Assembly (NCBI GenBank): GCA_934635385.1
Contig: CAKTZI010000020.1
Coordinates: 1,820-65,819 of the forward strand
Direction of reading: 5' to 3'
Source: an uncultured Kiritimatiellota bacterium
GTDB lineage: Bacteria > Verrucomicrobiota > Kiritimatiellia > RFP12 > UBA1067
DNA: 64,000 nucleotides
In this document: piece by piece, positions 4,097-57,872 of the stretch
How the letters are laid out: each line of letters opens with the position of its first letter
Numbering within the stretch: the first letter of the stretch is position 1
The notes under the pieces: model-generated
Seen by the model: the letters and a program-made list of their open reading frames with translations, nothing else
What the model was told of the DNA's origin: nothing
Databases searched by the model: none
Translations under genes and position numbers: made by a program

Positions 4097-6738
<2,642 letters not shown>

Positions 6739-40675: not shown

Positions 40676-40684
40676 GGAAGAGTT

Positions 40685-40806: not shown

Positions 40807-40850
40807 CATATCACCCAAATATGCCCATGTTTCTTGTGACTTTCTTGCGA

Positions 40851-43800
40851 CTATTTGCGCCTTTCCGCGCGGATTTTCTCAATCAGTTTTGCCTTGCCGC
40901 GCTCGATGTCGGAGAGCAATGAGGCATCGACTTCATGGCCCTCCTTCTCGTCCCTCATCGCCCTTGCCTCGTCCCTGCGGATCTGCGCAATGTCGGCGGC
41001 GATGTCCTCGCGCACGCCCTCGCGCATGAGCGGATTTTCGGCAACGATGCTGTCGAGCAGAAGCCTCCTGTTCTGTTCGTCGAGAAGCTCGTCTTTCTCG
41101 ATGGCGTCGTATTCTCTCTTGGAGTCCAGGAATCGATTGGAGAGAATGGCGTAATCGTCTTTGCGGTACGTCCCCTTGCCGATGCCGAACATCGTCAGCC
41201 CCGCGCCGAGGAATGCCGTAGCCCACGCACGGTCTTCAATGCCGTTCTCGTAGATGGAATGCCCCGCATCGCGGAGCGAGATCGGCGCAAACGACAGCAA
41301 CAGTTCGGCCGCGCCGTAGTCCTGCCCTGTGTAGTCCTTCCCGGACAGTGCGGAGAAAGCATTGCTCACGAGCGGCGTGAGACGGCCCTTTGCGAAATGG
41401 GCAACCTCTCCGAACATGTCGCGCACTTTGGCCTGTTTCCCAGTAGCAGTCTCGTATGCGCCCGTCACAAGTCGGTTGCCGAGGCGCAGAAACGCCACGG
41501 AGCCGCCCGTGAGGTCAAGCTGCGTGTGCCGTATGCGTGGTGCAACGAGCATTTGCAGCCGTTTCACGGGGCCGGCATGGGCGAATTCGTCCTTCTGGTC
41601 GTCGGTCGCGAACAATGCCGTGAGCAGAGAGCCAAGTAGAATCGCGCCAAGATTCGAGCGCACGAATTCGCCGAGCCCAATCCTCGACATTGTAAGACGT
41701 TCCTTGAACGTACCCGAACCGTCCTCTTCCGCACTTGCCGTCCACGAATGCCATACCTGATACCCGATGAGCCGCTTCAACTGCGAATCGACAAGGCCAG
41801 GAGCCCAGAACACTTTGCCAAGTATGCGCCGGTTGTCCTTTGAGAGCGTGCCGGAACCGTTCATGACGTTTATCATGTCGCAAAGCATCTTCTTCTGGAA
41901 TACGGTTGCCCCGCCGGGGAAGAGTTTCGGATCGTTGACGATCGTGGAATAGAGGCTTGCGGACACGGCGTTGATGTATGTCGCATAGAGCCGGTCAGAG
42001 TTCTCTATGGACGTGCCGTAGAACGGAATATCGGTAAAGCGGAGCGCCTTGCCGCCAATCGTAAACGGCTTGTCGATTGCGTCAAACAACTCCACGCGCT
42101 CGCCGCGACTGGTCGAATCGGAAACCTTCTTCCAACGAAGCCAGCCGTTGTCCACGGCCTCCTTCACGGAAGCGTCGGAGAGAAGATCGAGTTCTATGTT
42201 CTCCGCGTTGATCCTGCTCTTGAACGCCGAAATCGTCTTTGCGAAGTTCGCCGCAACGATTTTCGGATGCGCCATGAGGATCGTACCCGTCTGGTTGCCT
42301 ACCTGCGTGAAGTCGAGCGAAGCCGTAGCCATCTTCCACACGCCGTCCACGAAACGGTAGGCATCGCCCATGAAACGGACGAACTTGGGCTTGCGGGCAT
42401 CCGCAGCTTCACGCCGCAAGTCGGCAAGCTTGCGGTGGGCCCTGTTCATCTGCTCGGCCATCGCCTCGTACCGCTTCTGCATTTCCGGCGGCATGGGCGG
42501 CTGCGGCTTCTTCTGCGGGCGCAGGTCGCCACGGACAATGCGTTCGGCAAGACGCGCAATCGCCTTTTCGCGATTTGCCATCTTGCGAGCGTTGTAGGCG
42601 GAAAGCTCTTCCGGCGTCAGGCCGAACTCGTACTTCGCCTTTTTGAGTTCGCGAATCTGGTTGCGCACCTCGGACAGCCTTTCTCGCAGAGCGTCAAGCG
42701 TGGGCGACTCGGCCCTTGGACGCCTTGCCTTCTTCGAGAAGTCGCCGGAACGCGCGCGGTCGAGATCGGCCAGCGCGTGTTCAAGTTCCCTGCCGAGAAG
42801 CCGTTCCGCAAGCTTCACGCGCTGCGCATCGGTCATCCCATGTTCAGTCCTGAAAAGCTCGTCATAGGTCTTCTGGAGTTCGTCCTTCCGCTTTCTCAGT
42901 TCGCGCAGTTCGATGTCCTCCATCACCGTGCGCTCTCGCCCGGGGATCTTCTCCCCCGTCTCGATTGCACGTTCAAGGTCTGCGATGCGGTTCTTCACGC
43001 GCGTCTTTGCGGATTCGAGGACGCCCTTCAGCCTCCGTGCGTCGCGTCCCGCATCCGGGACCTCCTTCTTGCGCTCCTGTACCTGCTTCTGCAGGTTTCG
43101 CGTCGTGTCGGACGGCTCGTCGCGCACCATGCCCGTAAGGGGCGGCATGGTGTTATTCTCGTCCATCCAGTCCATCTGCCGCTTGAGGCGAGACTGGGAA
43201 CGCAGGTCGTTCATGAGGCGCTGCGCCTCGTAGCGGGATTGCCGGAAGTTGTGGCCGAATCCCGTGAGCGCGTCGCGTACCTGATTCTCGTCCACGCCGT
43301 CCATGAACGGCGAGATGTCCTCCACGATTGCCTTGATGCACTCGTCTTCCGTGATGTCGGGATTCTCGAAGCAGTGGTATTCTCCGATTGCGCGGAGCCA
43401 CTTGCCCCAAGCCGGGTACTGCTGATCGGAAAGTCCGACAAGTGTGCCGCCGACCTCCGCAGAGCCGACCTCGATCTGGGCAAGCGCGTCGTTGTAGTTC
43501 CGCATGACGCGCTTCACCTCGTCACCGGGATTGCGCTCCGCCACCTTGCGAATCCTGTCGCCTCGTTTGATCTGCTCGACAATCTTCTCCGCCTGTGCCT
43601 TCAAACGTGCGGTGGCGAGATCCCTCCCCTCTTCGTCAAGCGTGGCAAATCCGTTGGCAATCTCCCGAATCTTCGCGTCCATTTCAGGCGCGATCTTGTC
43701 GGCACCGCCGAGGATTGCGGCCACCTGTCCCGAAATGCCGGCATACGAGAAGTCCGTCTGGTCGATGAGTCCACGGTTCGAGCGCAGCCGACGGCCAGCC

Positions 43801-46800
43801 TCCGAAGAACTCCGCGTCAGCGCAAGCCCGGTCTCGTACATGAGCGACTTCGCCTGTGCGAGCTGGGACATGGCCTCGCCATATTCGCGCGCGACCTTCT
43901 TCTGATTCTCGCCAAAGCCAGCGTCACGTTCGTCTTGGGGAATCGCATTGAACGCATCAAGCGTCTCTTTGAGTCCGTTCACGACAGACTGCGCCGCGTT
44001 TACCGCCGCCTGGCGACGGCGGAACAGGACATTGAGCGCATTGTTCTCGTAATCCGCGATGTTGCGCGGGAACTTCGCCACCGCACGGGAGAGTTTCTCC
44101 ATGTAGGACGGATTCGACAAAAGGGCCTCTGCCTGTTCCCACGCCGTCTCGTCCGGCTTGCGGACATGCTTCGGCGGTTCCATCCCTGCAGCCTTTAGGG
44201 CGGTTGCAATCTCGTCGTTCGTCATGCCGTACACCTCGCGCATGACCTGCTCCGTCGGTGTCTTGTCCTCCGCTTCGGAGTATTTCTCCTCCGCTGGCGT
44301 AAGGTTCGGCGTGTCGAAGTCAACCTGTCCGACTGAAAGCGTATCGACGCTCGGATATTCGCCCTTGCTGTTCGGTTTCAGGTGCGGGCGCAAATCAGCG
44401 GTCTTCGTCGCGGCGTTCTTCGGGCGGGCAAAGTCCTCCGCGTCCATGAGCGGAATCAGTTCCCTGACGGTCGGCGCGGAAAAGCTCTTCGCGTCACTTT
44501 CACGACGTGCAACGTACTTCTGTCCGTTTCCGGACTTCGTGATGAGCCAGTTGCCGTATGCCGCCGCCTTGCGGTTCTCGACCGCCTGAATGACGAGTGG
44601 CGTGATGGCCCGCTCCAGTTCCGCTTGGCGTGTGCGCAGCTTGACGAGTTCATCGCGCATCCCCTCGTAATCCTTCTGCAACCTGTCGGCATCGGCGGAC
44701 ATCTTCTTCGCCTGCCTGTCCATGTCGGCCAGCGAGTTCTCGTAGGCTTTCGCAAAGTCGGGCGACACCGTCTCGAATATCTTGCCCTTGAACGCCGTCA
44801 TTGCAGCCTGGGAGAAGTCGGGAAGGAAGCCGGAGTAGTTTATCTCACGCGCAACACCGATCATGGGGACGGCGATGTTGAACTTCTCATCGCCCCACTT
44901 GTCGTAGGTCAACACAAGCTCAACGCCGTTGAAGTCGCCGAGGACGGTCTTGTCGTCGCGTCCGTAGCGGTCTTTCGTAAGTTGCTTCGCCATCTGGGCG
45001 GAGACATAATCCGCCATGTCCTTCACCTTCTCGATGGATCGGCCGTCCGGCGTGGAGAGGGCGAACGGCTTTCCCTCGTTCTTCTTGCGCCACTCCTTCA
45101 CGCCCTCCTGTTCCCTTGCGAATTCCTCGCGGCGACGCGCCAGAATTCGGCTGTTCGCTTCCGCCCTGTCCTTGTTTCTCCGTGCGGACGAGAGGACGGA
45201 TTCCGTGTTGAGTTCGAGCTTGTGGACGCGCTTCTTCACGTCGATGAGCTCCATGAGCGCCTTGTTTCCCGAAGCAAGGCCCATGAGCATGTCGCGATCC
45301 ATCGCGCTTTCGTCCATGTCAATCTCACGGACGGAATCGTCACCGTGCATCACCTGGTCGATGAGCTTTGATTTCACGCCGATCAGCTGGTGGTTCTTCG
45401 TCTCGTAGGAGCCGATGTTGGCGTTGCCCTTCGTGAGGTAGTAGAAAATCTGCCCTTCCTTGTAGGTGTTGCCGAAGCGGATGATTCGTCCGATTGCCTG
45501 TTCGTCTTCGGACGGCTTCCATCCCGGATGCAGAAGGTGTATCGCCGCAAGCCGTTCCTGCACATTCGTCCCCTCGCCCATCTTCGGGCGTGATCCGATG
45601 AGCACGCGGACTTCGCCACTCCTCACCTTCGCGAACAGGGCGCTCTTGTTCGCGTCCTTGTCGCCCTTTGACTTGTCGATGTCCTGTATGATGGCGATCT
45701 CGTCCCTCGGTATTCCAGCCGTCACAAGCAGGCTGCGGATTTCCTCGTTGAGGTTATACGCACCTCTCGCATAAGGCATATCCTGACCGCCCGTAATGTG
45801 TGCGGCTATGTACTCGTCCGTGCCACCACTGGCGCGATTGAAGATGTCCGTGAAGACAAGTTGCGCACCACGCTCCGCCACCGTCTCGTCGTACACCTTC
45901 TTGATTTCGGACACGGCGCGGATGATCTTGTTGCCTCCGTCCTCAAAACCAAGCAGCCGTGGCGTGAGGCAGGCGTTCTTCGCGATTCGTGTCAACGTCA
46001 GATACTTGTTGCGCTCCTCGCGGCTCGGTGGAGTTGCCGCCTCATGCGCCACCATTTCCATGATGCGCTCCTGTGCAGGCGACATATCCACGTCAATCAT
46101 GTGGTATTTCGGCTTTGGACGCGGAATGTCCAGCTGATCGGGGTTTACGATGTCCACGACGCTCCGAAGGAGTTTCATCAGTTCCGGGATGTTCACGAAC
46201 GCCGAAACCTTTTCCTTCTCCTTTACCGTCTTGCCGTCAAGCGAGAATTCGCTTTCCGTTGTAATGCGCCCGAACGCATCCACGAAATCGTCGAAGTGCT
46301 TCAGCCCCTGCTCTTCAAGTTTGTTGGGGGCAAGGTATTTCAGCATGACATACGCCTCGACTACGGGCGCGTTGGAGAGCGGCGTGCCCGTCGCGAACAC
46401 GACACCTCGGTCACCGCCGTGCAGGGACTGGACGTACTGCGTCTTCATCTCCATGTCAACCGCCCGCTGGCTGTCGCCCTGCGAGAGTCCACCCGTGCGC
46501 CCCTGCCGCGTGGTGATCGGCATTCCCTTGAAATTGTGCGCCTCGTCCACGAAGAGCTGGTCCACGCCCAGTTCCTCGAACGGCACGATCTGGCTGTCGT
46601 GGTTCTCCGCGTTCGCAAGCTGTTCAAGTTTCGCCTCCAGCCGTTCGAGTTTCTTCGTGGCCTGATCGACTGAAATCCTCTCCCCGGCTTCGCGCATCGC
46701 GGCGATTGCCTCGATGAGGTCTCTCCGCTGCGCCTCCATGAATTCCTTCTGATACTCGTCGGACATGGCGAGCTTCTTGGAGAACGTGGAATGCTTCACG

Positions 46801-49800
46801 ACGATTGCGTCCCAGTCCCCGTTCGCCACCTGGGCGAAGAACGCCCGGCGGTTTTCCGGCTTTACGTCGGCCTCAGCCATTTTCAGGATGTTCGCGTTCG
46901 GAAACGCCTCCACAAACTCGTTCGTGAACTGCTCCAGCATGTGGTTCGGAACCACGTACATCGGCTTCTTGAACAGTCCCAAATGCCGTCCGAGAACGCC
47001 GATGGACTGCATTTCAAGCGTCTTGCCAGCGCCTACACAATGCGCAAGGCAGAGCGAACTGCCGCCGAGAACGCCACGGGCGATCACGTCGGACTGGTAT
47101 TCGCGGCCCTTCTTCGGCTTCTTGGGGTCGCCGCCCTCGAAGAGCTTGCCCAGCGCCGCCTCGCTCATTCCTGCGGCGCGGAACGGGAGGATGTTGTTCG
47201 GCAACTTGATCTCCACCATGTCCGTCATGACCGCATTGTAGCGTTCGTACATCGGCTCCGCCCACCGCTCGCTTGCCTGGATGAACTGCGAGAACGCATG
47301 GTGCAGCTTCTCCGCCGCGAGCTTGTTCCCCTCGGTGCGCTTCTCGTTGAGATAGCGTTTCTTGTCGATGGGATCGGTCTCGTAGTGGTTCATCGAGCCG
47401 TGGTTCAGGACGCGGCTAACGAACTCCTGCGGCGACCAGCTCGTTTCGCCCCACGGGTCTTCGTTCATGATGCGCCCGAACTCGACATTCCACTGCCCCG
47501 TCACCTCGTTCCTGCCCAGCATGATGTGCATGGACTCGGAACCGAATGCGTCGCGCAGGAAATCCTTCATGCAGTCCGTATCGACCCATGTCGCGCCGAA
47601 CTTGATTTCCGCATCCTCCAGCCGCACCATCGGCGGCTGCACCTTTTCAAGCGCCTCAACGTTCGCGCGGTAGGATTCTTCGCCCGCCTCGACGGCGGCA
47701 CGCGCCGCCGCAAGCTTCGCGCGGACGCGCCCGGAGAGGTATTCCCACGACGGTTCGAGAAGCCCCGTCTGCGGATTCTCGAAAGCGTCGCCGCCCTCTT
47801 TCAGTTTTCTGACGGCTTCCTCGTCACCCACGCCCAGCAGTTCCGCGATTCGCGGCACGTTGATTGCGCCGGACTCCGAATAGGAGATTACGAGCGCGTC
47901 CTTCGGCGTGTCGGCCTTCGTCGCCCGCTGTCCGCGAGAGATGACGCGCTTCGTGAAGATGTCGGACTTCACCACTTTGGGCTTTCCGCTTTCGTCCTTC
48001 ACGATTCGCTCAAGGGCAAGCAGCCTGTTCCCGTCCGCCTTGTCGAGAAGCACGAACGGCGAAATCCACTTGTCGTGAAGTGTTCCGTTTGCCTTCACGA
48101 AGGTGTCGTAAGCCTCGTTCAGCTTCGCCTGAAGCGGGGCAAGATCGGTTTCCACGGAGTCATTGTCCGTCATCTGCGCATCGATCACGTCCCGCATGGC
48201 CTTCCGAAGCGAAAGCAGCCCGCCCATGATCCTGTCCGGGGTTCGCCCGCGCTTTTTGAGTTCCTTGGAGAGCGAACGGTCGTTCGGGAAGACAATCGGC
48301 TCCAGCATCTCGCCGCTCTTGATGAACGGCTTGCCGTCCTTCATCGTGACGCTGCCCTGTCGCAGTCCCTCTGCGTCGTAGACCGGCGTGTGGTCTTGGC
48401 GCTCCGCGACCGCCGCGCTCTTCAGGAGCGCGTCCTTGTCGATGCCGTCCAGCGCACGGCCGATGGCCTTGCCTATCTCAGACGACAGGTCGCCCGGCAG
48501 CACGTCGGGCATGGAGTACTTCAGAATCGGCCCGAACTGGCCGCTCGCAATCTCCATCGTGCCGACAACCTGCTCCGGGTGGTCTTGGAAGTAGCCGTTG
48601 TATGTCAGCGGCTTCTCGATCCGGCCTTTGCGGCGCACCCATTCTTCAGTCTTGCCGTATTCCACGCCCTTCTCAAACGCCGCGTTGTCGGGACGGCCCT
48701 GCACCTTCTGGACGATCACGAGGTCGCTTGCGACATCCGTTCCCGCGTTTTCGGAGAAGAACCCGTTGGGGAGGCGCACAGCACCGACAATCTGCCCACC
48801 GTGCTCCGTGAGGAACTGGCGGAGAATCGGGCTTGTCTTGTCGAGTGTGCCCGTCGATGTCAGGAACGCCATCACGCCGCCCGGCCGCAGCTTGGCAAGC
48901 GTCTTGGCGAAGAAGTAGTCGTGGATCTTGAACATCCTGGACGACAGCGAACGGTCGTTGATCGGTACGTCCGCATACGGCACGTTGTCGATCGCGAAGT
49001 CGAAGAACCCGTCGGGGAACTTCGTTTCCTCGAACCCGCCGATGTTCACGCGCTGGTTCGGGAAGAGGGCCTTGAGCATTTCGCCCGTCAGGACATCCTT
49101 CTCCACGAACTGCCAGCTGACCGGCTTCTCGTATTCGCCGGCCGCGCTCGCGAAGTTGCCCGTTCCGGCGGACGGGCCGAGGAACCGCCCGCCTTTCACG
49201 CCGAGGCGGCGAAGGTTCTCATGCAGCGCCCGGACGAAGTAGACTGGCGTGTAGAACGCCGTCGAGGCGGAAGCCTTTGCCGACTCGTATTCCTTGTCGT
49301 TGAGAAGCTGCCGAAGTTCCCTGTGAAGGCCGTACGCGCCCTGGCTGATTCCGTACCTGCGGAGAACGCCGGGTACGCGCTCCGGCTCGCCCGCACGTTC
49401 AAGGGCATATGCGCTTTCAAGCCCATACCCGAACATGTCCTCGCGCAATCCGCCCCATCCGACGAACTTGGCGAGCGTGGCCTGCTCTTCCGGGGTCGCC
49501 GCGTAGTCCCGCGCTTTCAGGTCGCGGATGAGCCTTATCGCGTCGAGATTGTTGCGGACGCGCTGTGCCGTCTTCTTTTCGAGGATCGCGTCCTCGACCG
49601 ATTTCGTCATGACGAAATCGCGGCGCGTGGGATTCGGCTTTGTCGCGTCTGCGGCCTTGGCGGCACGCTTCTTTACGTGCGATACTCCGCCCTGATTCCC
49701 ATCTCCTGCGCGATCTCGCCCAGTCTCGCGTTCGCCATCCTCGGATACCGAGCGATTTCCGACGGGGCCATTTCCTTCAGCAGACGCTCTGCCGGAGTCT

Positions 49801-52800
49801 CCTCCCCGTACTCCTTCCGTAGTTCCCTTGCCAGCCAATCCTTCATGCTGTCCGGGAATCGCCCCAAGTCGTTCACCGACCACTCGCGCATCGGGATTTT
49901 CAGGCCGTACCCGTCCACCGGCCAGTATTCCTCCGGATTGCTCCCCTCCTCCGTCGGAGGCGGGTTCAGCCGCAACCACTCCGTGCTGCCCTCTTCTATC
50001 TGCTCCATCATTAACCTCCTTGGCTTGTGCCTCTATTATACCAAAAATGCGCTCTGCCTCTGCGTCACTCACGCGGGCAAGCCCGCGTGCGCGAGCCACG
50101 GCGTTCCAGATGTCCTGAAGAACCGGCTTCGCACGTTCGTACTTCGCCGCGTCGCGCTCGTAGATGTAGGTGGCAAGGGCCTTGAAGTCCTTGTGCCCGC
50201 TCTCGACAAGCACATCGACGAGCTTACCAACGCCCGTGACGAGTTTCCCGAACTTCTCCGGGTTGAAGTCGGGCGTGTCGAAATCTACTTGCCCGCTTGC
50301 GCCTTTCGCGCCGCCTCCTGCAACGCCGCCCGTATTGCGGACACTCGCTTCCTCTCGTTCTCGGAGGTGTCCGAGGAAATAGTTTGCGCTTTCCCTGATT
50401 CTTGCATGGTCTGGATTTCCTTTCGCTTCAAGCTGTTTAAGTGTGATTTCAGGCGCACCGTCTACGGAATTATCGTAGATATGGAGATGTATTTTATCAC
50501 CATACGCATCGGAAAGCAACCGCAGGTTCTCGCGGCTCTTCACGTGCGAGTTGGCGAACGAGAGCGGCGAGACGATATGCCCGCCGTTCTTGACGCGCTG
50601 CGCGATGCCTTCCAACGCCTGTCCGGGAGTGCGGTAGACGAAATGTATCTCCGGCTTCTGCCCATTGGCAAGAATCGCGTCTATCTGCCTCTTCGCCACA
50701 TCGAGGTTGCCGAGCGTGGAATCTATCGTAAAATCATGGCTATCCCCAATCTTCGCGGCCACGGTCGATTTCCCCGCACCGTTTCCGCCTGCAAGGAATA
50801 CTACAGTTCCATCGCCCTTGCCCTTGCGCGTCTTCAGCAGACGCTGGAACTGCGCCTCCAACCGAGGCCCAACATAGCCCGTCCTGTCAACGTGCGTGCT
50901 CCAGTCCAACCGGTTGTAGCCCGGCATGGTCTTTCGCACCTCGTCGCCGCTCACGATTGTCGAATCCACGCCCAGTTCGGGGCTGTCGAAGTCGATTGCG
51001 TCGAGCGCGGCCTTCGCCTTGCGTTCAGCCGCCTCGTCCTTCATCCTGATGGACGGGGCTTTAGACGTCTTCGGCTTGGCAACATGTCGGGATTCCCGGC
51101 TGCTTGCCGATTCTGGCCGATTCAGGGCGTTTTCGTAGATTGCAACGGAGTTCTTCCCGTGGATCTCGTCAAAGTCCTTCCAGCTCACATGCAGTTGCGT
51201 TGCATTCCTGCGTGTACCGTCGCCGAAGATGTATGCCGAATACGCATTCCCCGATGTGTCCTCATAGCCAAATGACAAGTCCCCGCCCCTGCGCAGATAG
51301 ATGGCGTGGACTTTTGCGTTTGGATTGTTCTTCCGCCATTCAGCGAAAGCATCGCCCTGTTTTTTCGTGACGGCGTTTGCGGCTGGTTCGGGCTTCGTCT
51401 CCAGCTTCGCCGTCATCACCATGCCCATCGCCGCCGCCTCCTCCGGCGTGACGCGCTTCGTGATCTTCCGGCCGTTCTCCTCGATTTCCACGGTGACCTT
51501 GTGGTGCGCGTTCTCAATCGGAACGCCGCCGACTTTGAGCGGCTTGCCGTCCTCAACAGGCTTCGCGGGCTTTTCAGTTGTTAAGTCTTTCTGAACAACT
51601 GCCGTAGCGCCCGATTTCTGCCCCTCTGTGGGCTTCGCGGCTTTTGGACGCGCCGTTGCCTCCGTTTTCTTCGAATCGCTCACAGGGCCGTTTTCGCGCG
51701 TCTGTGGTAGGGGCATAACGCCAACGATTTCAGACCTGTCGAAGGTGTCTATCGCGTTATAGTTCCAGCCGTCCCGGTAGGACACCTTCACGCGGTTGCC
51801 GTCCACGGATACGATCGCGCCGCGAATCTTCTGCCGGGCGTTGATCTCGCCGCCCGTGTCGTGCTGGATGACCACTTCCCGATTGGGCGCAATGTCACCT
51901 TCCCTTGGTACGACGTAGCCATCGACCGGCTCTGTCGTGCCGTCCTTCTTCGTGAAGACGGCGACCTTGGGAGTCACAGGTTTCGGCCTCTGCGTCCGGT
52001 TGAACAGGTCTTCGCCCTCTGCGCCGCCGAGATCCATGAGAGACTGCCCGACTTCGCCCGCGCCGCCCTTCAACGGAGCGGCCTTGCGACGCTCGATTTC
52101 CTCCTTCTCCGTCCGCTTCCGTTTTTCCTCCGCGATCTGGTCGCCCGTGACGCGCTCCAGTTCAAGGTTCTCCTTCGGGACGATGCCGAGTTCCGCGTCA
52201 AGGGCTGCCTTGTCGGCTTCGTCGAGCCGCACGGCGTTGCGCCAATACTCCGCCCTTTCGAGCGCCTTTTGGCGTGCGTCGGCGAGCTGCTTCCTGTCCT
52301 TGGGGTTCCTGATGCCAAGTTCTTTCGCGTACGCCTTGTTGAGGTCGAGTCGACCGCCCTTCTGCATGGCCGTCTGAAGGACGTTCGCAATGCGCCCGTA
52401 CTCGTTCGCCTTTTCGACGCGCTTGGCGGCGCGCTTCTCCTCCAGGGCCAGCAGCTTCAGGTCCTCTTCCGACGTGAAGAGGTCGAGCTGCATTTCCCCG
52501 CCCGTCGCTGGGGCCTTGCGGCTTTTCGCCTCTTCGGACAGTGAACGCGCCACGATGGCGAGCCTATCGCCCCGCAGTCCCTCCAGCGCCTTTTTGACGA
52601 GGATCTTCTGGACGGCTCCGTTGCGCGGATGGGCGTTCCTCGGCGCGGCCTTGGCGATGATTCCGGCCTGTTCGACCGAAATCAGCCCATCGGCTCCGCT
52701 TCCGCTCCAGTCAACTGCCGCCCGAGTGCCTTCCGTAGCACCTTCGTAAAGCTCGAATGCGAGTCTGCCCTTGCTCCGCGAGAGGAATCCGGCGGATTCG

Positions 52801-55800
52801 GCTGCGGCTCTTGACGGCTTGGCGTTTTCAAAGTATCTGACATAATCCTTTACACTTCCTTTCTCATCGATGATGTTTGAGATTGCGTCCAAATTGCGCA
52901 TGTCCTCCGGCGTATAGCCGTCCTTCTCGTAGAACAGGCGCGCCAGGATGTCCTTCTTGCCCGTCCGCTTGGCGAGGTCGAACCTGTGGCGACCCGTCAC
53001 GAGTTCCTTCGTCCCGTCCCTGCGGACATAGACGACCACGGCGTTCTCCGCGCTCTCGAAGTATTCCCCCTTGAGTTCCTGCCCCTTCACGACGCCCGTC
53101 TTCGGGTCTGCGCCCTCCTTGAACTGCGTGTCGGGAAGGGAAACGTCGCCGACGGGAACGCGCACCGGCTCCTGGTTGTCGTGCATGACGCGCAGGAAGT
53201 CGTGTTCCGTCCGCATGGCCGGGGAGATGCCGTCCGTTGCCGCACCTACATCCGGCTTTGCAGTTTTCGCGCCCGCTGCCGCCGCCGCTTCATTTCGCTG
53301 AACTTCTTGGCCTTTCGCCCGCCCGTCCATTCCGGCATTCTCGACCGGCTGTGTTTCATCGGCTCCATTCCCTGTCTCATCCTTTACCTCCGTGTTTGTC
53401 TCTTTGTGCCCTTCCACCGGGAAGAACTCAAACCTTTCGGGCGTGTCCGCACGTCCCGCCGCAACGCCGCCCTCGCCCTTCGCCGCCTCGCGCCACCGTT
53501 TCATCATCACCTTCACGTCGGCGGACGAATACGTCTTGCGCAGATTCATCTTCCGCGCCGCGTCGTTCACCTTGCTGACGAGCTTGTCGAGTTTTGACGG
53601 CTCCGCGTCAAGGTTCGCCGAGGCATAGTGCGCGAACACCTCGGCGAGATTCCCGTTCACGCCCTCCATCGTGCCGCACGTGGCCGGGAAAAGCCCGTCC
53701 ACGATCTGCCTCTTGAACGCATCGAACTCCTTTGCGCGGATGTTCTCCGCGAATTCGACCGCGCCCGATTTCCCGAACTCGCCATTCGGCCCGCCATGCC
53801 CGACGATCTCGTGCGCGAGAATGCGCGGGATGTCGCCTACCTCCTGAACGTTGTCGAGAATCACGACCGCCGTTCCGTCCGACGTGTAGAAAGCGTCCCT
53901 GTCCTGCACTGCCGGATTGAGCAGCTGGCTGGCATCGTTCAGCCCAAGGCAAGTGCCGTCCCGTGCGATGCCGTCCGCGAACGCCTGTGCTGCGTCCGCC
54001 ATCGTGTTGAAGTAGACGACGTTCTTCTTGCCGTACTTCGCCGCCCGCTCGTTCTCGATGACCTGCCGCTTGCGCTGACGGTCGAGGGCGGTGTACTGCC
54101 CCATGAGGGCAAGTTCCCGTGCTTTTTCGACGGCCTCGCCAAGCGTGGCGGCTCCGTCGCTGTCGCCCGTGTCGTTGTGGACGGAGAAAGTCCCGTCCGC
54201 CTCCTCCATGATCGTCACGCCCGTGTTGGGGTCATGCGCAAGGTTGCTGACGTTCTCCTTGCCCGTCCTGTTGTCGCGCCACTTCATCGGAACAAGTCCG
54301 GGCTTCCCGTCGGCAGTCTGCGGGAGGCTGAAGCTGACAGGTTCAACCCCGAACTCGCTCTTCATCTTCCTGGCGAGAGCCTGCGACGGGGTGACGACCT
54401 TTCCCGTCTCCGCGTCGATTGTCGGCTTTTCGGGTATGACCGCGCGTTCCGGCTGCGCGTTCGCCGCGTCGCGAAACTTTGCGTTCAGCGTGTCGCCAAG
54501 GAAGTTCGCGACGCGCGGATCGAAAAGAATGTCAGTCGCGAGCTTCGCGTCCGGCGGAAGCCCCGCCTTGTCGCACAGTTCCTGAAACTTACGCACTGCC
54601 TCTTTCGTCGGCTTCCAGTCGGGGGCGGGGGCGCGGCCTTTCGCCGCCTCGCCCGTCGTGCCCGCTTCGAAGTCCGCCGCCGGCTTCGCGTGCGCCTTTG
54701 CGGTGTCGATTCCCTCCTGGACAAACCGCTTCAGGGCCATCATGCCGTCGGGATTCAGCCTTGCCAGCAAGAGACGGCCTTCCGGCATCTTGGCGGCTTC
54801 CCGGACGACCTTCTCGTAGTCACGCGCACCCTTGACGCGGGCGTTCAGGACGCGCCCGGCGCCCATGATCGCGCCAATCGCGACACCATCGCGAACGCCT
54901 TTCAATCCCTCGATGGTGATCTCCCCAAGGTCGAGGTCGTGTCCGCTGGCGAGTTGGCGGAATGCCGTATCGCCCGCACCTTGTGCGCCCATGAGACCGC
55001 CCGCTTCAAGCGCGGCAACACCCTGGTTCAGGAACTCACGCTTCGCGTTGAACCGCCCCATTGCCTTGGAAAGCCCGCCGAACGTGAACTTCTCGACGGG
55101 CTGGACGGGGACGATGCCCTTGCCGTTCATCCAGCGGCGGAACGGCGCATAGTAGAATGCCGCCGTCATCGCACCGTCGAAGAGGGCGCTGCCGCCCGCG
55201 ATGTCCTCCGCCGCCTTGCCCGTCTTGCCGCTTTCCAACGCCGTGCTGCGCGTCTGCTGGTATGCGTCGGCGGACGACATGGCAATCATCGTCGGGCCAA
55301 GGTACGCGAACTGCGCGATGCCGGATGCCGCGCCCTCCAGCCAGTCCACCACCGCGCTTCCCGAATTGCCGACGGGTGTCTTCTCGTCCAGCCAGTTGCG
55401 GATCCGCTTCGCGTCACGTATGGCCATGTTGCCGACAGCCGTCCCCTCTCGGCCATTCTCCACCATGAGGGAATGTTCCTGGTGCATTCCCTCCTTCCCG
55501 GCTATCGGGGCTTCCCACCTGAAATACTTTTCAAGGTTCTCGCGCACGGACGGATCGCGCTTCGCCATGCGCTTTACCTTCTCGTCGATGTTCACGCGCC
55601 CCAGCCAAGCATCAAACGATTCGCCCTCCTTCTTCGCCATCGGGTCGTCGGCCATGAATGCGTGACGCGCGTCTTCGTCCACGCCGCCAGCCGCCGTGCC
55701 GACAAGGTTGATGAGACCGGCGGCCATCTTGCCCGCCGTGTTCACGACGGTGCGGGGGACGCTCCGCCATCCCGCGCTTTTTCCCGTGCGCTCACCGTTC

Positions 55801-56600
55801 CCCGCGCGATTCCCCGCGACATACGCCAATGCCTCGCGCATTTCCTCGGGCGACTTGGACTCCTTGCGGATGCGCTCGATCTGCCAGTCCTCCAGCCCCG
55901 CTTCCTTTGCGACCCCGGCAAGGGCATCCTCGTCGCTTTTTCCGTTGCGCGGCACGCGCTTGCGACCGATCGGCTGGCCCATCGTGTTGTACGCCATCTC
56001 GTCCGACTCGTCCGTGCCGCGTTTCCATTCGGCAACGGCATCTGCCGTGTCGCCGTTCGCAAGCCGCTCCATGAGCGTGATCCTGTCCGGCTCGGTGCGT
56101 TTTTTGTGCTCATAGGCAACGCCCCGGTCTCGCCTGATCTCGTCCGAAACGTCGTCCCAGTGTTCGTGAAGCCAGTCGTTCCATTTCGACTGGTTGTCCT
56201 TCATGTGGGCATCGTGGACTTCCTGCGCCATCTTCTGCGCGGAAGCCTCGTCATCCGCCATGCCCCAATGCTCGCCCGTCTCGGCGTAGTGTCGGACGGC
56301 ATCCTCCTGCGAGAGTTCCTTCCCGCCGACAACCGTCGGCACGACGGCGAACTTGCCGTCTTCATGCCGAACGAGCATGGACGATGTGGTGGAGTAGCCG
56401 TTCATCTTTCCGTCCTTGTCGCGGCGAAGGAGAACCCTGCGGCCCTCGTTGCGAAGGTTTCCGCCCCACTGGTTCTTCTCGCCGTCGGGAAGCCTTTCAT
56501 TCCCACCGTCGCCGTCCTCACAGCTCAGAGGTTCAACCTCGCCAAAATCATCCGCCGCCTCAACAGGCTCGATTTCGCCCCACTCTTCGTTGTCATTCAT
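40851..56600 (-). CDS. Giant 5249-codon ORF. A polyvalent protein (HExxH zincin motif, ParB-like, zeta-toxin-like P-loop, N6-adenine MTase, SNF2 helicase, ~1500-aa coiled-coil C-terminal region). It may really be two genes (A: 56600 to ~50050; C: 49610 to 40851) joined by a no-stop read-through across the embedded gene region.
   Basis: Strong RBS AAGGAGG 8 nt before the ATG at 56600. Motifs located in DNA: HEIVGH 53797-53814, VTGRHRF 52981-53000, GGNGAGKST 50764-50790, NVPYAD 48966-48983, SNF2 motif I GAGKTLEMQ 47008-47034, DEAH 46526-46551, QAIGRIIR 45481-45510. Strong GC3 codon bias throughout except 49611-50045. Confidence 0.7.
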   Translation of the reverse strand: MNDNEEWGEIEPVEAADDFGEVEPLSCEDGDGGNERLPDGEKNQWGGNLRNEGRRVLLRRDKDGKMNGYSTTSSMLVRHEDGKFAVVPTVVGGKELSQEDAVRHYAETGEHWGMADDEASAQKMAQEVHDAHMKDNQSKWNDWLHEHWDDVSDEIRRDRGVAYEHKKRTEPDRITLMERLANGDTADAVAEWKRGTDESDEMAYNTMGQPIGRKRVPRNGKSDEDALAGVAKEAGLEDWQIERIRKESKSPEEMREALAYVAGNRAGNGERTGKSAGWRSVPRTVVNTAGKMAAGLINLVGTAAGGVDEDARHAFMADDPMAKKEGESFDAWLGRVNIDEKVKRMAKRDPSVRENLEKYFRWEAPIAGKEGMHQEHSLMVENGREGTAVGNMAIRDAKRIRNWLDEKTPVGNSGSAVVDWLEGAASGIAQFAYLGPTMIAMSSADAYQQTRSTALESGKTGKAAEDIAGGSALFDGAMTAAFYYAPFRRWMNGKGIVPVQPVEKFTFGGLSKAMGRFNAKREFLNQGVAALEAGGLMGAQGAGDTAFRQLASGHDLDLGEITIEGLKGVRDGVAIGAIMGAGRVLNARVKGARDYEKVVREAAKMPEGRLLLARLNPDGMMALKRFVQEGIDTAKAHAKPAADFEAGTTGEAAKGRAPAPDWKPTKEAVRKFQELCDKAGLPPDAKLATDILFDPRVANFLGDTLNAKFRDAANAQPERAVIPEKPTIDAETGKVVTPSQALARKMKSEFGVEPVSFSLPQTADGKPGLVPMKWRDNRTGKENVSNLAHDPNTGVTIMEEADGTFSVHNDTGDSDGAATLGEAVEKARELALMGQYTALDRQRKRQVIENERAAKYGKKNVVYFNTMADAAQAFADGIARDGTCLGLNDASQLLNPAVQDRDAFYTSDGTAVVILDNVQEVGDIPRILAHEIVGHGGPNGEFGKSGAVEFAENIRAKEFDAFKRQIVDGLFPATCGTMEGVNGNLAEVFAHYASANLDAEPSKLDKLVSKVNDAARKMNLRKTYSSADVKVMMKRWREAAKGEGGVAAGRADTPERFEFFPVEGHKETNTEVKDETGNGADETQPVENAGMDGRAKGQEVQRNEAAAAAGAKTAKPDVGAATDGISPAMRTEHDFLRVMHDNQEPVRVPVGDVSLPDTQFKEGADPKTGVVKGQELKGEYFESAENAVVVYVRRDGTKELVTGRHRFDLAKRTGKKDILARLFYEKDGYTPEDMRNLDAISNIIDEKGSVKDYVRYFENAKPSRAAAESAGFLSRSKGRLAFELYEGATEGTRAAVDWSGSGADGLISVEQAGIIAKAAPRNAHPRNGAVQKILVKKALEGLRGDRLAIVARSLSEEAKSRKAPATGGEMQLDLFTSEEDLKLLALEEKRAAKRVEKANEYGRIANVLQTAMQKGGRLDLNKAYAKELGIRNPKDRKQLADARQKALERAEYWRNAVRLDEADKAALDAELGIVPKENLELERVTGDQIAEEKRKRTEKEEIERRKAAPLKGGAGEVGQSLMDLGGAEGEDLFNRTQRPKPVTPKVAVFTKKDGTTEPVDGYVVPREGDIAPNREVVIQHDTGGEINARQKIRGAIVSVDGNRVKVSYRDGWNYNAIDTFDRSEIVGVMPLPQTRENGPVSDSKKTEATARPKAAKPTEGQKSGATAVVQKDLTTEKPAKPVEDGKPLKVGGVPIENAHHKVTVEIEENGRKITKRVTPEEAAAMGMVMTAKLETKPEPAANAVTKKQGDAFAEWRKNNPNAKVHAIYLRRGGDLSFGYEDTSGNAYSAYIFGDGTRRNATQLHVSWKDFDEIHGKNSVAIYENALNRPESASSRESRHVAKPKTSKAPSIRMKDEAAERKAKAALDAIDFDSPELGVDSTIVSGDEVRKTMPGYNRLDWSTHVDRTGYVGPRLEAQFQRLLKTRKGKGDGTVVFLAGGNGAGKSTVAAKIGDSHDFTIDSTLGNLDVAKRQIDAILANGQKPEIHFVYRTPGQALEGIAQRVKNGGHIVSPLSFANSHVKSRENLRLLSDAYGDKIHLHIYDNSVDGAPEITLKQLEAKGNPDHARIRESANYFLGHLREREEASVRNTGGVAGGGAKGASGQVDFDTPDFNPEKFGKLVTGVGKLVDVLVESGHKDFKALATYIYERDAAKYERAKPVLQDIWNAVARARGLARVSDAEAERIFGIIEAQAKEVNDGADRRGQHGVVAAEPASDGGGEQSGGILAGGRVRPENPDARVVGERLGAIPGQHEGLAGKGTTEGVRGGDSGRASAEGNGPVGNRSVSEDGERETGRDRAGDGNQGGVSHVKKRAAKAADATKPNPTRRDFVMTKSVEDAILEKKTAQRVRNNLDAIRLIRDLKARDYAATPEEQATLAKFVGWGGLREDMFGYGLESAYALERAGEPERVPGVLRRYGISQGAYGLHRELRQLLNDKEYESAKASASTAFYTPVYFVRALHENLRRLGVKGGRFLGPSAGTGNFASAAGEYEKPVSWQFVEKDVLTGEMLKALFPNQRVNIGGFEETKFPDGFFDFAIDNVPYADVPINDRSLSSRMFKIHDYFFAKTLAKLRPGGVMAFLTSTGTLDKTSPILRQFLTEHGGQIVGAVRLPNGFFSENAGTDVASDLVIVQKVQGRPDNAAFEKGVEYGKTEEWVRRKGRIEKPLTYNGYFQDHPEQVVGTMEIASGQFGPILKYSMPDVLPGDLSSEIGKAIGRALDGIDKDALLKSAAVAERQDHTPVYDAEGLRQGSVTMKDGKPFIKSGEMLEPIVFPNDRSLSKELKKRGRTPDRIMGGLLSLRKAMRDVIDAQMTDNDSVETDLAPLQAKLNEAYDTFVKANGTLHDKWISPFVLLDKADGNRLLALERIVKDESGKPKVVKSDIFTKRVISRGQRATKADTPKDALVISYSESGAINVPRIAELLGVGDEEAVRKLKEGGDAFENPQTGLLEPSWEYLSGRVRAKLAAARAAVEAGEESYRANVEALEKVQPPMVRLEDAEIKFGATWVDTDCMKDFLRDAFGSESMHIMLGRNEVTGQWNVEFGRIMNEDPWGETSWSPQEFVSRVLNHGSMNHYETDPIDKKRYLNEKRTEGNKLAAEKLHHAFSQFIQASERWAEPMYERYNAVMTDMVEIKLPNNILPFRAAGMSEAALGKLFEGGDPKKPKKGREYQSDVIARGVLGGSSLCLAHCVGAGKTLEMQSIGVLGRHLGLFKKPMYVVPNHMLEQFTNEFVEAFPNANILKMAEADVKPENRRAFFAQVANGDWDAIVVKHSTFSKKLAMSDEYQKEFMEAQRRDLIEAIAAMREAGERISVDQATKKLERLEAKLEQLANAENHDSQIVPFEELGVDQLFVDEAHNFKGMPITTRQGRTGGLSQGDSQRAVDMEMKTQYVQSLHGGDRGVVFATGTPLSNAPVVEAYVMLKYLAPNKLEEQGLKHFDDFVDAFGRITTESEFSLDGKTVKEKEKVSAFVNIPELMKLLRSVVDIVNPDQLDIPRPKPKYHMIDVDMSPAQERIMEMVAHEAATPPSREERNKYLTLTRIAKNACLTPRLLGFEDGGNKIIRAVSEIKKVYDETVAERGAQLVFTDIFNRASGGTDEYIAAHITGGQDMPYARGAYNLNEEIRSLLVTAGIPRDEIAIIQDIDKSKGDKDANKSALFAKVRSGEVRVLIGSRPKMGEGTNVQERLAAIHLLHPGWKPSEDEQAIGRIIRFGNTYKEGQIFYYLTKGNANIGSYETKNHQLIGVKSKLIDQVMHGDDSVREIDMDESAMDRDMLMGLASGNKALMELIDVKKRVHKLELNTESVLSSARRNKDRAEANSRILARRREEFAREQEGVKEWRKKNEGKPFALSTPDGRSIEKVKDMADYVSAQMAKQLTKDRYGRDDKTVLGDFNGVELVLTYDKWGDEKFNIAVPMIGVAREINYSGFLPDFSQAAMTAFKGKIFETVSPDFAKAYENSLADMDRQAKKMSADADRLQKDYEGMRDELVKLRTRQAELERAITPLVIQAVENRKAAAYGNWLITKSGNGQKYVARRESDAKSFSAPTVRELIPLMDAEDFARPKNAATKTADLRPHLKPNSKGEYPSVDTLSVGQVDFDTPNLTPAEEKYSEAEDKTPTEQVMREVYGMTNDEIATALKAAGMEPPKHVRKPDETAWEQAEALLSNPSYMEKLSRAVAKFPRNIADYENNALNVLFRRRQAAVNAAQSVVNGLKETLDAFNAIPQDERDAGFGENQKKVAREYGEAMSQLAQAKSLMYETGLALTRSSSEAGRRLRSNRGLIDQTDFSYAGISGQVAAILGGADKIAPEMDAKIREIANGFATLDEEGRDLATARLKAQAEKIVEQIKRGDRIRKVAERNPGDEVKRVMRNYNDALAQIEVGSAEVGGTLVGLSDQQYPAWGKWLRAIGEYHCFENPDITEDECIKAIVEDISPFMDGVDENQVRDALTGFGHNFRQSRYEAQRLMNDLRSQSRLKRQMDWMDENNTMPPLTGMVRDEPSDTTRNLQKQVQERKKEVPDAGRDARRLKGVLESAKTRVKNRIADLERAIETGEKIPGRERTVMEDIELRELRKRKDELQKTYDELFRTEHGMTDAQRVKLAERLLGRELEHALADLDRARSGDFSKKARRPRAESPTLDALRERLSEVRNQIRELKKAKYEFGLTPEELSAYNARKMANREKAIARLAERIVRGDLRPQKKPQPPMPPEMQKRYEAMAEQMNRAHRKLADLRREAADARKPKFVRFMGDAYRFVDGVWKMATASLDFTQVGNQTGTILMAHPKIVAANFAKTISAFKSRINAENIELDLLSDASVKEAVDNGWLRWKKVSDSTSRGERVELFDAIDKPFTIGGKALRFTDIPFYGTSIENSDRLYATYINAVSASLYSTIVNDPKLFPGGATVFQKKMLCDMINVMNGSGTLSKDNRRILGKVFWAPGLVDSQLKRLIGYQVWHSWTASAEEDGSGTFKERLTMSRIGLGEFVRSNLGAILLGSLLTALFATDDQKDEFAHAGPVKRLQMLVAPRIRHTQLDLTGGSVAFLRLGNRLVTGAYETATGKQAKVRDMFGEVAHFAKGRLTPLVSNAFSALSGKDYTGQDYGAAELLLSFAPISLRDAGHSIYENGIEDRAWATAFLGAGLTMFGIGKGTYRKDDYAILSNRFLDSKREYDAIEKDELLDEQNRRLLLDSIVAENPLMREGVREDIAADIAQIRRDEARAMRDEKEGHEVDASLLSDIERGKAKLIEKIRAERRK
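45400..47300 (-). other. SNF2-family helicase domain of the giant ORF
   Basis: Motifs I, II (DEAHNF), III (TGTPLSN) and VI (QAIGRIIRFG). Confidence 0.75.
48400..49610 (-). other. N6-adenine DNA methyltransferase domain (DarB/Ddm-like) beginning MTKSVEDAILEKKTAQRVRNNLDAI...LAKFVGWGGL
   Basis: NVPY catalytic motif, and TGTLDKTS after the AdoMet region. Confidence 0.7.
49673..50011 (-). CDS. Embedded 112-aa gene in an alternative frame within the giant ORF, with its own promoter and SD; hypothetical protein
   Basis: TTTTGGTATAAT (50035-50046), then AAGGAGGTTAATG ATG. MMEQIEEGSTEWLRLNPPPTEEGSNPEEYWPVDGYGLKIPMREW.... GC3 bias supports this frame over the giant-ORF frame in the same interval. Confidence 0.6.
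   Translation of the reverse strand: MMEQIEEGSTEWLRLNPPPTEEGSNPEEYWPVDGYGLKIPMREWSVNDLGRFPDSMKDWLARELRKEYGEETPAERLLKEMAPSEIARYPRMANARLGEIAQEMGIRAEYRT
50035..50046 (-). promoter_or_regulatory. Extended -10 promoter TTTTGGTATAAT internal to the giant ORF (translated there as ...ERIFGIIE...)
   Basis: Read directly. Followed 14 nt later by SD AAGGAGG. Confidence 0.55.
50400..50900 (-). other. Zeta-toxin/AAA_33-like P-loop kinase domain of the giant ORF
   Basis: VVFLAGGNGAGKSTVAAKIG. Confidence 0.55.
52800..53100 (-). other. ParB-like (ParB/Srx fold) domain of the giant ORF
   Basis: VVYVRRDGTKELVTGRHRFDLAKRTG. Confidence 0.55.
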
Positions 56601-56618
56601 CCGAAAGCCTCCTTGTGA

Positions 56619-57872
56619 TTATTCCGCAACGCCACCAGCACCAACCATTTCAGGTTCGCCCTGCGTCCCATCATCGTAAACGGGAATTCGCCTTGACCGA
56701 TCCTTGTTGTATCGGTAGCCCTTCAAAGTCTTCTGCCCTTCTTTTGACGGTTTTTCGCCCTGAGGATTCTTCGCTTCACTGTCGTCTGCGCCACCGCCAA
56801 ACGCATCGGATAAAATCCGCGTAAGGGATGTCTGGAATTGCACGGCCTGATCGTCGCTGAGTTTCAGCCCACGCTTGATGTCGGTCATGTTCTTGGCCAC
56901 GGATGCCGCAAGGCGTGCATTTGCCGTGTCGTTCTTTGAACTGGCACGGGCATTCCGCCCCTGTTCTTCATCCTTGCGCTGTGCGAGGCGGTCGCGCTCC
57001 AACTGCATTCGCTCTTCGCTCATGCCGCCGCCCTTGTTCGAACCCATGAACTCCTTGACATCCCCGAAGTAGGATGTCAGCGCGGAACTTCTAATCTCGG
57101 CGTTCAGCGGATTGTCGATCTCCACGAGCGGTCGGCCAGATTGCTGGTCTATCTGCGCCTGTCCGTTGCCGTCGAGCGCGTACCTCACGAAATGCAATTT
57201 GCCGTCCGAGAACGGCTTGCCCGTCGTCGGGTCAACCGTCCCGATGTAGTTGTATTCCCGGCCCTCGTCGAGCATCCCGCCCTCCAGCAGTTCCTTGTTG
57301 AACTGGTCCACCTGCTTCCGCGTGACGATGCCGTTCTGGAGCTGTGCGAGAATGGCCATGTTGCCGTAGCTGCCCTCCATCGCGGCCTTGCGGTTCGCCA
57401 TCTGCGCGTCTTCCTCCTCCTTGAGGCGGAAATAGGAGTCGAGCTTCGCGTTTCGCTCCTCGAACGCCAGCCGCCGGTTCTCGATTTCCTGCGCATCCCG
57501 CTCCATCTGCTGCATCTTGATGGCATCGTCCCACGACTTCGCATGTTCCATGTCGCCGCGCCTGTCGGCGTATTCGCGCTTCTTCTGCGCCTGCACCTCG
57601 TCGAACTGGCGGACACCCTCCTCGCGGTTCGCCGCCCGCTCCTCCATCTGCGCGTCGAACTGACGCGCGCCCTCGGCACGTGCCGCTTCGGCTGCCGCCT
57701 GTTTTTCGTCGAACTGGCGGGCGTTCTCCTCCCGGTTCGCGTCCGCCTGTGCGGCCTGCATGTCCTGTCCGCGCCGTGCGGTCGCGGCGTTCATCGCCGC
57801 GATCGCCCTCTGGCGCTCGTCGTCCTTGATGTTCTTCCCGAAAGAGAAGTTTGCTACCTGAAAACCTGCCAT
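56619..57872 (-). CDS. Phage-module coiled-coil protein with ARQFD-type tandem repeats (scaffold or internal-virion-like), hypothetical
   Basis: Three ~48-nt DNA repeats (tcgtcgaactggcgg...) around 57590-57760. Q/E/R/A-rich. Confidence 0.45.
   Translation of the reverse strand: MAGFQVANFSFGKNIKDDERQRAIAAMNAATARRGQDMQAAQADANREENARQFDEKQAAAEAARAEGARQFDAQMEERAANREEGVRQFDEVQAQKKREYADRRGDMEHAKSWDDAIKMQQMERDAQEIENRRLAFEERNAKLDSYFRLKEEEDAQMANRKAAMEGSYGNMAILAQLQNGIVTRKQVDQFNKELLEGGMLDEGREYNYIGTVDPTTGKPFSDGKLHFVRYALDGNGQAQIDQQSGRPLVEIDNPLNAEIRSSALTSYFGDVKEFMGSNKGGGMSEERMQLERDRLAQRKDEEQGRNARASSKNDTANARLAASVAKNMTDIKRGLKLSDDQAVQFQTSLTRILSDAFGGGADDSEAKNPQGEKPSKEGQKTLKGYRYNKDRSRRIPVYDDGTQGEPEMVGAGGVAE

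Follow-up and report, generated by a model that had tools for sequence, protein, structure and literature searches.

A giant phage-type polyvalent protein with a DarB-like core and recurring junction peptides, encoded at the probable end of a prophage late operon in an uncultured Kiritimatiellota bacterium

What kind of protein fills a single open reading frame (ORF) of 5,249 residues, and why does such a gene lie directly behind phage-like structural genes on a bacterial contig? We addressed this question for a 64,000-nt stretch of DNA, hereafter the window, from an uncultured Kiritimatiellota bacterium (GenBank assembly GCA_934635385.1, contig CAKTZI010000020.1, positions 1,820 to 65,819). 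The gene occupies 40851..56600 of the window on the minus strand, as do all of its parts described below, and encodes a protein of 579 kDa from an ATG start. A sequence-only reading had taken the product for an unusually large, virion-packaged protein of the P1 DarB-like polyvalent type. By its sequence features, the giant protein is a phage-type polyvalent protein of the class described by Iyer et al. (2017) with a DarB-like core, and its gene is probably the last of the late operon in an integrated podovirus-like prophage akin to Bcep22 (Lessievirus), supplying several early-acting effectors. The domains follow one another as an N-terminal domain, a zincin-like HExxxH segment, a ParB/Srx-like domain, a zeta-type kinase, an N6-adenine methyltransferase joined to an SNF2 ATPase, and a C-terminal module. 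This list and order, as first proposed, survived our profile and structure tests, and the motif strings quoted for it were all present at the expected places.

The only stop in the translated ORF is the terminal one. A strong Shine-Dalgarno sequence (AAGGAGG, 56608..56614, minus strand) lies 7 nt 5' of the ATG, as had been noted, and the gap from the stop of the preceding same-strand gene (417 aa, 56619-57872) measures 18 nt rather than the 19 nt first given. This 417-aa neighbor was present on at least seven metagenome contigs, and the identical 5,249-residue product was called beside it in both of the places shown, which belong to two samples (ENA and Logan). In a library of representative proteins at 50% identity, P0035 (5,288 aa) was 93-95% identical to the giant protein. 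Because the identical product recurs on contigs of different samples and a near-identical representative of 5,288 aa exists, an assembly artefact or chimera is ruled out, and the frame is not a fusion of several ordinary genes. The size is at the upper end, yet it is not unique. An exhaustive profile search of representative proteins with the N-terminal domain recovered 1,242 members (E ≤0.001), with giants of 5,123, 5,196, 5,288, 5,304, 5,704, 5,744, and 7,428 aa among them, so that "unusually large" overstated the case.

Two relatives gave separate observations on the integrity and plasticity of this gene. P0035 differs from the giant protein by a local replacement of about 95-125 aa at giant aa 1541-1635 (window ~51696-51980), which shows very recent cassette-level mosaicism; the replaced segment is helical in P0035, and its counterpart in the giant protein looks SH3-like. 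In another relative (76% best local identity, about 80% over the shared core), the giant gene appears to be split near aa 3860 into P0001 (3,698 aa), which terminates in '...KVKDMANMSPRR' where the giant protein runs on, and P0026 (1,867 aa), which begins just after that point. Each of the two lists a longest contig of 26,428 bp, and they appear to share one contig. The split could be a frameshift, a sequencing error, or a true two-gene arrangement.

Assignment of function started from sparse matches. The giant protein was run against Pfam in overlapping 1,500-aa pieces, and itself matched none of the Pfam polyvalent-protein models; aa 1-1900 and 4200-5249 matched nothing in Pfam, PHROGs, or NCBIfam. 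Single-sequence searches of PDB with the first 2,000 aa, the core, and the last 1,449 aa returned nothing useful, and profiles were required.

The DarB-like module (aa 2113-4092; 44325..50264) comprises a region of winged-helix and DUF (domain of unknown function) type, the predicted methyltransferase, the predicted SNF2 ATPase, and a helical extension. Its strongest match was to PHROG 10089, "DarB-like antirestriction" (aa ~2260-4195, E 4e-299), and the same stretch also matched PHROG DNA-methyltransferase and helicase families. We assembled a core profile from five sequences (the giant protein, Bcep22 gp75, P1 DarB, and two metagenomic giants) and searched it against PDB sequences. The top matches were all SNF2 ATPases, namely ISWI (2.5e-14), Sulfolobus SNF2/Rad54 (5e-12), DDM1, INO80, Snf2, and RapA, with SNF2-type matches spanning E 2.5e-14 to 1e-8. 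The methyltransferase segment matched M.TaqI (5e-5) and the HsdM subunits of type I systems (3e-4 to 3e-3; EcoKI HsdM 3e-3). PADLOC found the MADS methyltransferase mad2 (2e-10) and the SNF2-like DrmD (3e-7) within the core. Because the core-profile and PADLOC matches agree, the N6-adenine methyltransferase and SNF2 ATPase predictions of the sequence-only reading both hold as good assignments. The methyltransferase (aa ~2420-2700; 48501..49343) carries motif I as LGPSAGTGNF and, about 60 aa further on, motif IV as DNVPY (2538-2542), with NVPY at 2539 rather than NPPY. The SNF2-family ATPase (aa ~3120-3760; 45321..47243) carries GAGKT at ~3190, DEAHNF at 3352, TGTPLSN at 3404, and QAIGRIIR at 3701. 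The Pfam SNF2 model was not matched, and Helicase_C reached 18.9 bits, below its cut-off of 23.5. The closest core relatives from isolated phages were giant proteins of ~60-kb podoviruses (30-33% identity), including those of the Ralstonia Gervaise type, the Burkholderia Bcep22 type, Erwinia PEp14, and Klebsiella SopranoGao.

N-terminal to the core lie three further domains. The zeta-toxin-like P-loop kinase (aa 1877-2104; 50289..50972) has its Walker A motif GGNGAGKST at 1938, and Zeta_toxin was the sole Pfam family to exceed its curated cut-off (49.3 bits against a gathering threshold of 22.3, E 5e-13); its prediction as a zeta-toxin-type kinase, made first from the Walker A motif, is a good one. 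The ParB/Srx-like domain (aa 1148-1331; 52608..53159) contains VTGRHRF at 1201, in which GRHR (1203-1206) is the arginine motif, and shares about 40% identity with parts of Vibrio and Shewanella phage proteins. A seven-sequence ParB profile had Noc and ParB as its four best PDB matches (E 0.004-0.08), in an alignment that spans the GxxR motif (ITGRHR/IIAGERR). Pfam ParB_N was reached by four of the seven family members on their own, with a best E of 7e-4, and not by the giant protein itself. The DdrB-ParB model was absent among the matches of all seven members, even at E values up to 10, and we therefore file the segment under the ParB/Srx superfamily in general, a good assignment at that level and one that bears out the initial suggestion.

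The zincin-like metallopeptidase candidate (aa 861-994; 53619..54020) contains ILAHEIVGHGG at aa 926-936. The site had been spelled HExxH; HEIVGH is in fact HExxxH (H930-E931-xxx-H935). The H, E, and H are invariant, as is a downstream Glu (E987), and fold matches to zincins were weak, so that the peptidase prediction stands with moderate confidence. An HEXXXH variant had already been described for the polyvalent class (PMC5512222), whose zincin-like metallopeptidase has a three-stranded sheet, then a helix with HExx(x)H, and a Glu on the helix after it (Iyer et al., 2017). Sequence-only matches of the HExxxH segment to stathmin (coiled-coil noise), leishmanolysin (E 0.07), and M49 (E 0.31) were discarded as evidence.

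The two ends of the chain are less familiar. The N-terminal conserved domain (aa 28-168; 56097..56519) was modeled confidently as a small beta-sheet, a helix, a strand, and a long helix, with a predicted local distance difference test score (pLDDT) of 89.8 and a predicted template modeling score (pTM) of 0.78. The model had no fold match in PDB. Among predicted structures it matched uncultured-phage proteins (E 4e-6 to 6e-4), one of them named polyvalent-protein-associated, and more weakly a tape-measure protein (E 5.5e-3) and an SLT transglycosylase protein (E 0.035). IMG/VR has it on at least 184 contigs, many of them 37-64 kb in length. Pfam held no family for ten small proteins made of little beyond this domain, and nine members searched against PHROG remained unmatched save for one marginal hit (E 0.007).

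In P0046 (7,428 aa), an N-terminal-type domain sits near the C-terminus (residues 7105-7248). In P0087-P0152 (100-170 aa), its ~70-residue core makes up nearly the whole protein, with the signature GNIDLxxRP...IPTVVxG...TGEHLG. Because it occurs both near the P0046 C-terminus and standing alone in small proteins, the domain is a mobile, independent one.

The C-terminal module (aa 4101-5249; 40854..44300) has neither a family assignment nor an annotation, and 12 metagenomic relatives share it (48-97% identity). It includes a highly charged, probably coiled-coil stretch (aa ~4309-4740; 42381..43676) with an SMC-like LmuB match over aa 4309-4656 (E 1e-9). Two highly charged stretches (~3750-4000 and ~4500-4740) bracket a conserved non-coiled module. 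The earlier description of about 1,500 aa of coiled coil thus fits the charged stretches and not what lies between them. The only strongly hydrophobic helix of the giant protein follows (aa 4979-4998, then the acidic TDDQKDE; 41592..41666), and LPD38-type relatives show the same helix and acidic patch. The last residues (aa 5146-5249; 40854..41165) form a tail that LPD38-type polyvalent proteins have in homologous form (hhalign probability 98.2%, E 3e-14). LPD38 had no Pfam match in the giant protein, and its hhalign probability for the region after the hydrophobic helix was below 1%, on which ground we rejected the module as a divergent LPD38 save for the last ~100 aa.

The cassettes are bordered by a short recurring peptide. 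Its three copies are IDFDSPEL (aa 1869-1876; 50973..50996), VDFDTPDF (aa 2105-2112; 50265..50288), and VDFDTPNL (aa 4093-4100; 44301..44324), and C-terminal-module homology starts exactly at the third. We scanned for the pattern [VILMA]xF[DY][TS]Px[LFIM] and observed 3 occurrences in the giant protein against 0.005 expected from shuffling, and 13 against 0.0125 in five relatives together. Homology to different relatives begins and ends exactly at the three sites, which divide the chain into four parts of 204 kDa (zincin, ParB), 25 kDa (zeta), 220 kDa (DarB-like), and 130 kDa (C-terminal). In six further relatives the C-terminal module always starts at a junction peptide, and in P0022 and P0026 additional cassettes are inserted between two copies. 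In distant giants the same cassette types come after the peptide, and one such protein of 5,744 aa has eight copies. The consensus of 34 distinct occurrences is (V/I)-x-(F/W)-D-(S/T)-P-(E/D)-(L/F/M)-x-P. Among proteins of at least 1,500 aa, 9 of 11 with two or more junction copies have the HExxGH form of the zincin motif, versus 4 of 36 without such copies (Fisher 2e-5), and both exceptions are C-terminal fragments.

We read the peptide as a candidate self-cleavage site for the embedded peptidase. In this proposal, which we judge less likely than not, the giant protein would be a phage "polyprotein" in which the HExxGH zincin cuts at the junctions before or after ejection and frees interchangeable effector cassettes. 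More speculatively, cleavage at the three junctions would yield fragments of the four sizes just given, with the middle cassettes as interchangeable cargo; because the ends are constant and the middle is variable, the pattern suggests that the N- and C-terminal modules serve virion incorporation or ejection. An embedded protease, interchangeable effector cassettes between conserved ends, and a short recurring border peptide are also features of MARTX toxins and viral polyproteins. These are an analogy only, with no homology to the giant protein, and they differ in that they rely on secretion or translation in the host, whereas the giant protein, with its putative cleavage, would be ejected by a phage. 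That polyvalent proteins are cut into working units by a peptidase of their own was a prediction of Iyer et al. (2017), who named no processing site; their paper mentions no such junction, and a text search of the literature returned nothing relevant.

We advance cleavage tentatively, and several results weigh against it. The Fisher value is inflated by kinship, with only about four independent lineages represented. The HExxGH-bearing giants P0010, P0065, and P0168 have no junction peptide. The upstream flanks are only slightly enriched in disorder-promoting residues (0.65 vs 0.59). Alternatively, the peptide may be no cleavage site at all and rather a recombination scar or microhomology for cassette swaps, or a docking motif for packaging or a chaperone, and we give this explanation a real chance, if less than an even one. 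Cassettes have clearly been exchanged at junctions, as the insertions in P0022 and P0026 show, P0035 differs by a local swap, and the weakly disorder-like flanks speak for it as well. Yet the three copies carry synonymous differences in their DNA, which indicates that selection acts on the peptide and weakens the case for a DNA-level recombination site. The peptide is also retained in lineages as far off as P0057, it tracks the HExxGH domain, and it is missing from the other phage proteins examined: it was absent from all other reading frames of the window and six related loci (~210 kb, head and tail genes included). On that absence we rejected its identity as a general prohead-protease site.

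Two side observations concern the junction. A degenerate DNA pattern for VDFDTPEL had nine matches in IMG/VR, close to the few that a rough by-hand estimate gave for chance, and only L018 was a true relative. P0060, P0072, and P0041, which share the N-terminal domain, are without the FD(S/T)PE(L) junction and have other recurring inter-module peptides, e.g., "(Y/F)(A/S)P(V/I)EPL" and "RRAFGED"; the peptide used at junctions may vary from lineage to lineage.

How does the giant protein compare with known systems? It is one chain of more than 2,000 aa in which the zeta, ParB-like, methyltransferase, and SNF2 segments are each supported independently, and it is phage-encoded beside virion late genes. 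The phage-type polyvalent proteins of Iyer et al. (2017), which include the LPD38 class, DdrB-ParB, and a metallopeptidase hub, are likewise multidomain chains of more than 2,000 aa encoded beside virion genes, and the ParB/Srx domain, zeta kinase, and SNF2 helicase are common to them and the giant protein, whose candidate metallopeptidase would correspond to theirs of the HEXXXH form. In detail, the ParB domain here is nearer ParB_N than DdrB-ParB, and the LPD38 tail is shared while the middle of the C-terminal module is not LPD38. In metagenomic relatives that share the N-terminal part, LPD3, ART-PolyVal, and LPD38 replace some of the cassettes. The domain combination is new, and new combinations are usual in this class.

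The Lessievirus proteins Bcep22 gp75 (4,602 aa) and JC1 gp69 (4,515 aa) are likewise giant. Both genes also come last in a virion morphogenesis operon, ahead of divergent genes and, in Bcep22, of a terminator, and gp75 shares the methyltransferase-SNF2 core (31% identity over aa 2291-3796). Outside the core, BLAST found no alignment between gp75 and the giant protein, in the N-terminal domain, ParB, zeta, or C-terminal module. Bcep22 gp75 is without the junction peptide and has an ordinary HExxH (HEAFH at aa 3552), in contrast to the HExxxH here. P1 DarB likewise combines methyltransferase and helicase in one chain and is annotated as a defense against type I restriction. Unlike the giant protein, it is of ~2,255 aa and consists of the core only, with its gene beside the portal gene. 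The DarB-like label is borne out at the level of the family, by the PHROG match and by the LPD3, LPD38, and ART-PolyVal domains of relatives; a closeness to P1 DarB itself is not (tblastn E 2e-11, 25% identity, 40% of the query core covered). The N4 virion RNA polymerase (~3,500 aa) is likewise a giant protein encapsidated and ejected by a podovirus. It differs in being a polymerase, and no sequence similarity to the giant protein was seen, where no test aimed at it was made. The N4 protein contains a metallopeptidase region and is packaged unprocessed (Iyer et al., 2017).

The neighborhood of the gene is that of a virion operon. Six tightly packed genes lie upstream on the minus strand (56619..64000), encoding 417, 428, 59, 649, 496, and 483 aa, of which the last runs off the window. 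This truncated 483-aa product matched phrog_511, "internal virion protein" (E 4.6e-45), and is homologous to the virion-associated gp67 of Bcep22 (E 4e-22). The C-terminus of the 649-aa product (59368-61317) weakly matched the same PHROG family. This product also has Listeria-Bacteroides repeat (Flg_new) domains, found again in syntenic relatives of 568-866 aa, and its role in the virion may be receptor binding or display at the surface. Three giant relatives have these genes beside them in conserved order. On a 44-kb IMG/VR contig, the giant gene is 86% identical to that of the window in the N-terminal domain. In the next 10 kb upstream on that contig, we found the end of a gene for a portal/head-tail adaptor protein (3e-11), followed in our list by a virion structural protein (4e-24), a weak match to a major head protein (6e-4), and a tail- or decoration-domain protein. 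The structural-gene context asserted by the sequence-only reading was thus confirmed, through relatives.

We propose as the most likely course, by analogy with P1 DarB and JC1 gp69, that the giant protein would be produced late in infection, enter the capsid, and pass into the next host together with the ejected DNA. There the methyltransferase-helicase core would shield the incoming DNA from restriction, and the kinase and the ParB-like NTPase or nuclease would act on host targets. Protection of the incoming genome by P1 DarB has been shown by genetics, and JC1 gp69 was detected by mass spectrometry in virions purified on cesium chloride (JC1 paper). Some points count against this proposal. 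We infer packaging, ejection, anti-restriction activity, and cleavage alike; about 12 kb of prophage lies upstream of the giant gene on this contig, and head genes were seen only in the relative; and packaging of P1 DarB requires helper proteins (JC1 paper). None of the helpers DarA, Hdf, and DdrA turned up here, where no search aimed at their homologs was made, and no such partners are reported in Lessieviruses (JC1 paper).

The most serious alternative to packaging is that the protein stays in the cytoplasm late in infection and has its role in the cell that makes it, where it might, for instance, methylate progeny DNA ahead of packaging. A chain of 579 kDa is very large to be packaged and ejected, the methyltransferase could in principle protect DNA before packaging, and helpers of the DarA/Hdf type, for which no aimed search was made, did not turn up here. 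We nevertheless judge this unlikely. The gene sits among homologs of internal virion proteins at the end of the virion operon, the syntenic JC1 protein of 4,515 aa is present in purified virions, and the names of the phage proteins matched by the N-terminal domain (polyvalent-protein-associated, tape measure, SLT transglycosylase) suggest virion components. Nor is size an obstacle for the 3,500-aa N4 virion RNA polymerase, which is ejected.

A host anti-phage defense protein of the DISARM, MADS, or Lamassu kind, encoded in a defense island, is very improbable. It would account for the partial PADLOC/NCBIfam matches (mad2, DrmD, LmuB, and a PLD-helicase) and for the adjacent 10-37 kb region with its toxin-antitoxin genes, Fic/RhuM, IS110, and integrase. 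These matches are to single domains and far under their cut-offs (DrmD 21 bits vs 610), however, and the DarB-like PHROG match exceeds them by orders of magnitude. No DISARM, MADS, or Lamassu partner genes are adjacent, the giant gene is co-oriented and tightly coupled with virion-protein homologs, and its relatives lie on IMG/VR viral contigs. Least probable of all is a polyvalent protein of a conjugative element delivered by a type IV secretion system, for although the methyltransferase-SNF2 core has many plasmid homologs (2,122 records, 705 on conjugative plasmids), neither the window nor the related loci showed relaxase, type IV secretion, or ArdC-N genes, the neighbors are virion-protein homologs, and the C-terminal tail is common to LPD38-type proteins, which are listed as phage-only (Iyer et al., 2017).

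Giant polyvalent proteins are thought to carry ready-made sets of anti-defense enzymes with phage or plasmid DNA, and almost none has been studied experimentally. With the phage-type polyvalent reading in place, the giant gene itself is an ordinary, if large, member of its class, and its lineage offers two handles. The junction peptide, found at cassette borders and tracking one peptidase type, makes the processing hypothesis directly testable; if cleavage occurs there, polyvalent proteins would have their first defined processing site, and their cassette borders could be read by rule. The unnamed and widespread N-terminal domain may mark proteins bound for the virion. With both handles, many giant ORFs in phage metagenomes that now lack annotation could be better annotated.

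The DNA beyond the giant gene bears on where the prophage ends. An AT-rich spacer of 175 nt (40676..40850) runs from the giant-gene stop to a P-type cation ATPase gene and is a probable prophage-chromosome junction. The ATPase (71-72% GC, GC3 0.93) and a methylpurine-DNA glycosylase occupy 37407-40741 and are presumably native chromosome squeezed between two mobile elements. Beyond them, a tyrosine integrase (35973-37292) borders a low-GC island (10500-37300; 42-62% GC vs 66-72% in the flanks), with several PIN toxin-antitoxin pairs, a STAND-like ATPase, an IS110 transposase, Fic/RhuM, and an AraC regulator, which looks like a separate integrated element adjoining the prophage. Because the giant gene is followed by the AT-rich spacer, then high-GC chromosomal genes, then the integrase-bordered island, the prophage end most likely lies just past the giant gene. 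In another sample, Logan contig ERR7745759_13825 (L002) breaks ~230 nt past the giant-gene stop, with the integrase on a separate 2.1-kb contig; the break weakly supports this boundary and would fit a prophage that some strains carry at the junction and others lack. No tRNA was found in the window, and an attachment-site search at the 40.7-kb boundary gave no convincing terminator or repeat. The other end of the prophage lies beyond the contig.

Upstream of the virion genes, about 2.7 kb past the right end of the window on the same contig (L001 704-1147), a 147-aa gene matches the Pfam Tad2-like family PF11195, known for anti-Thoeris phage proteins. It would be a second anti-defense gene in the same prophage.

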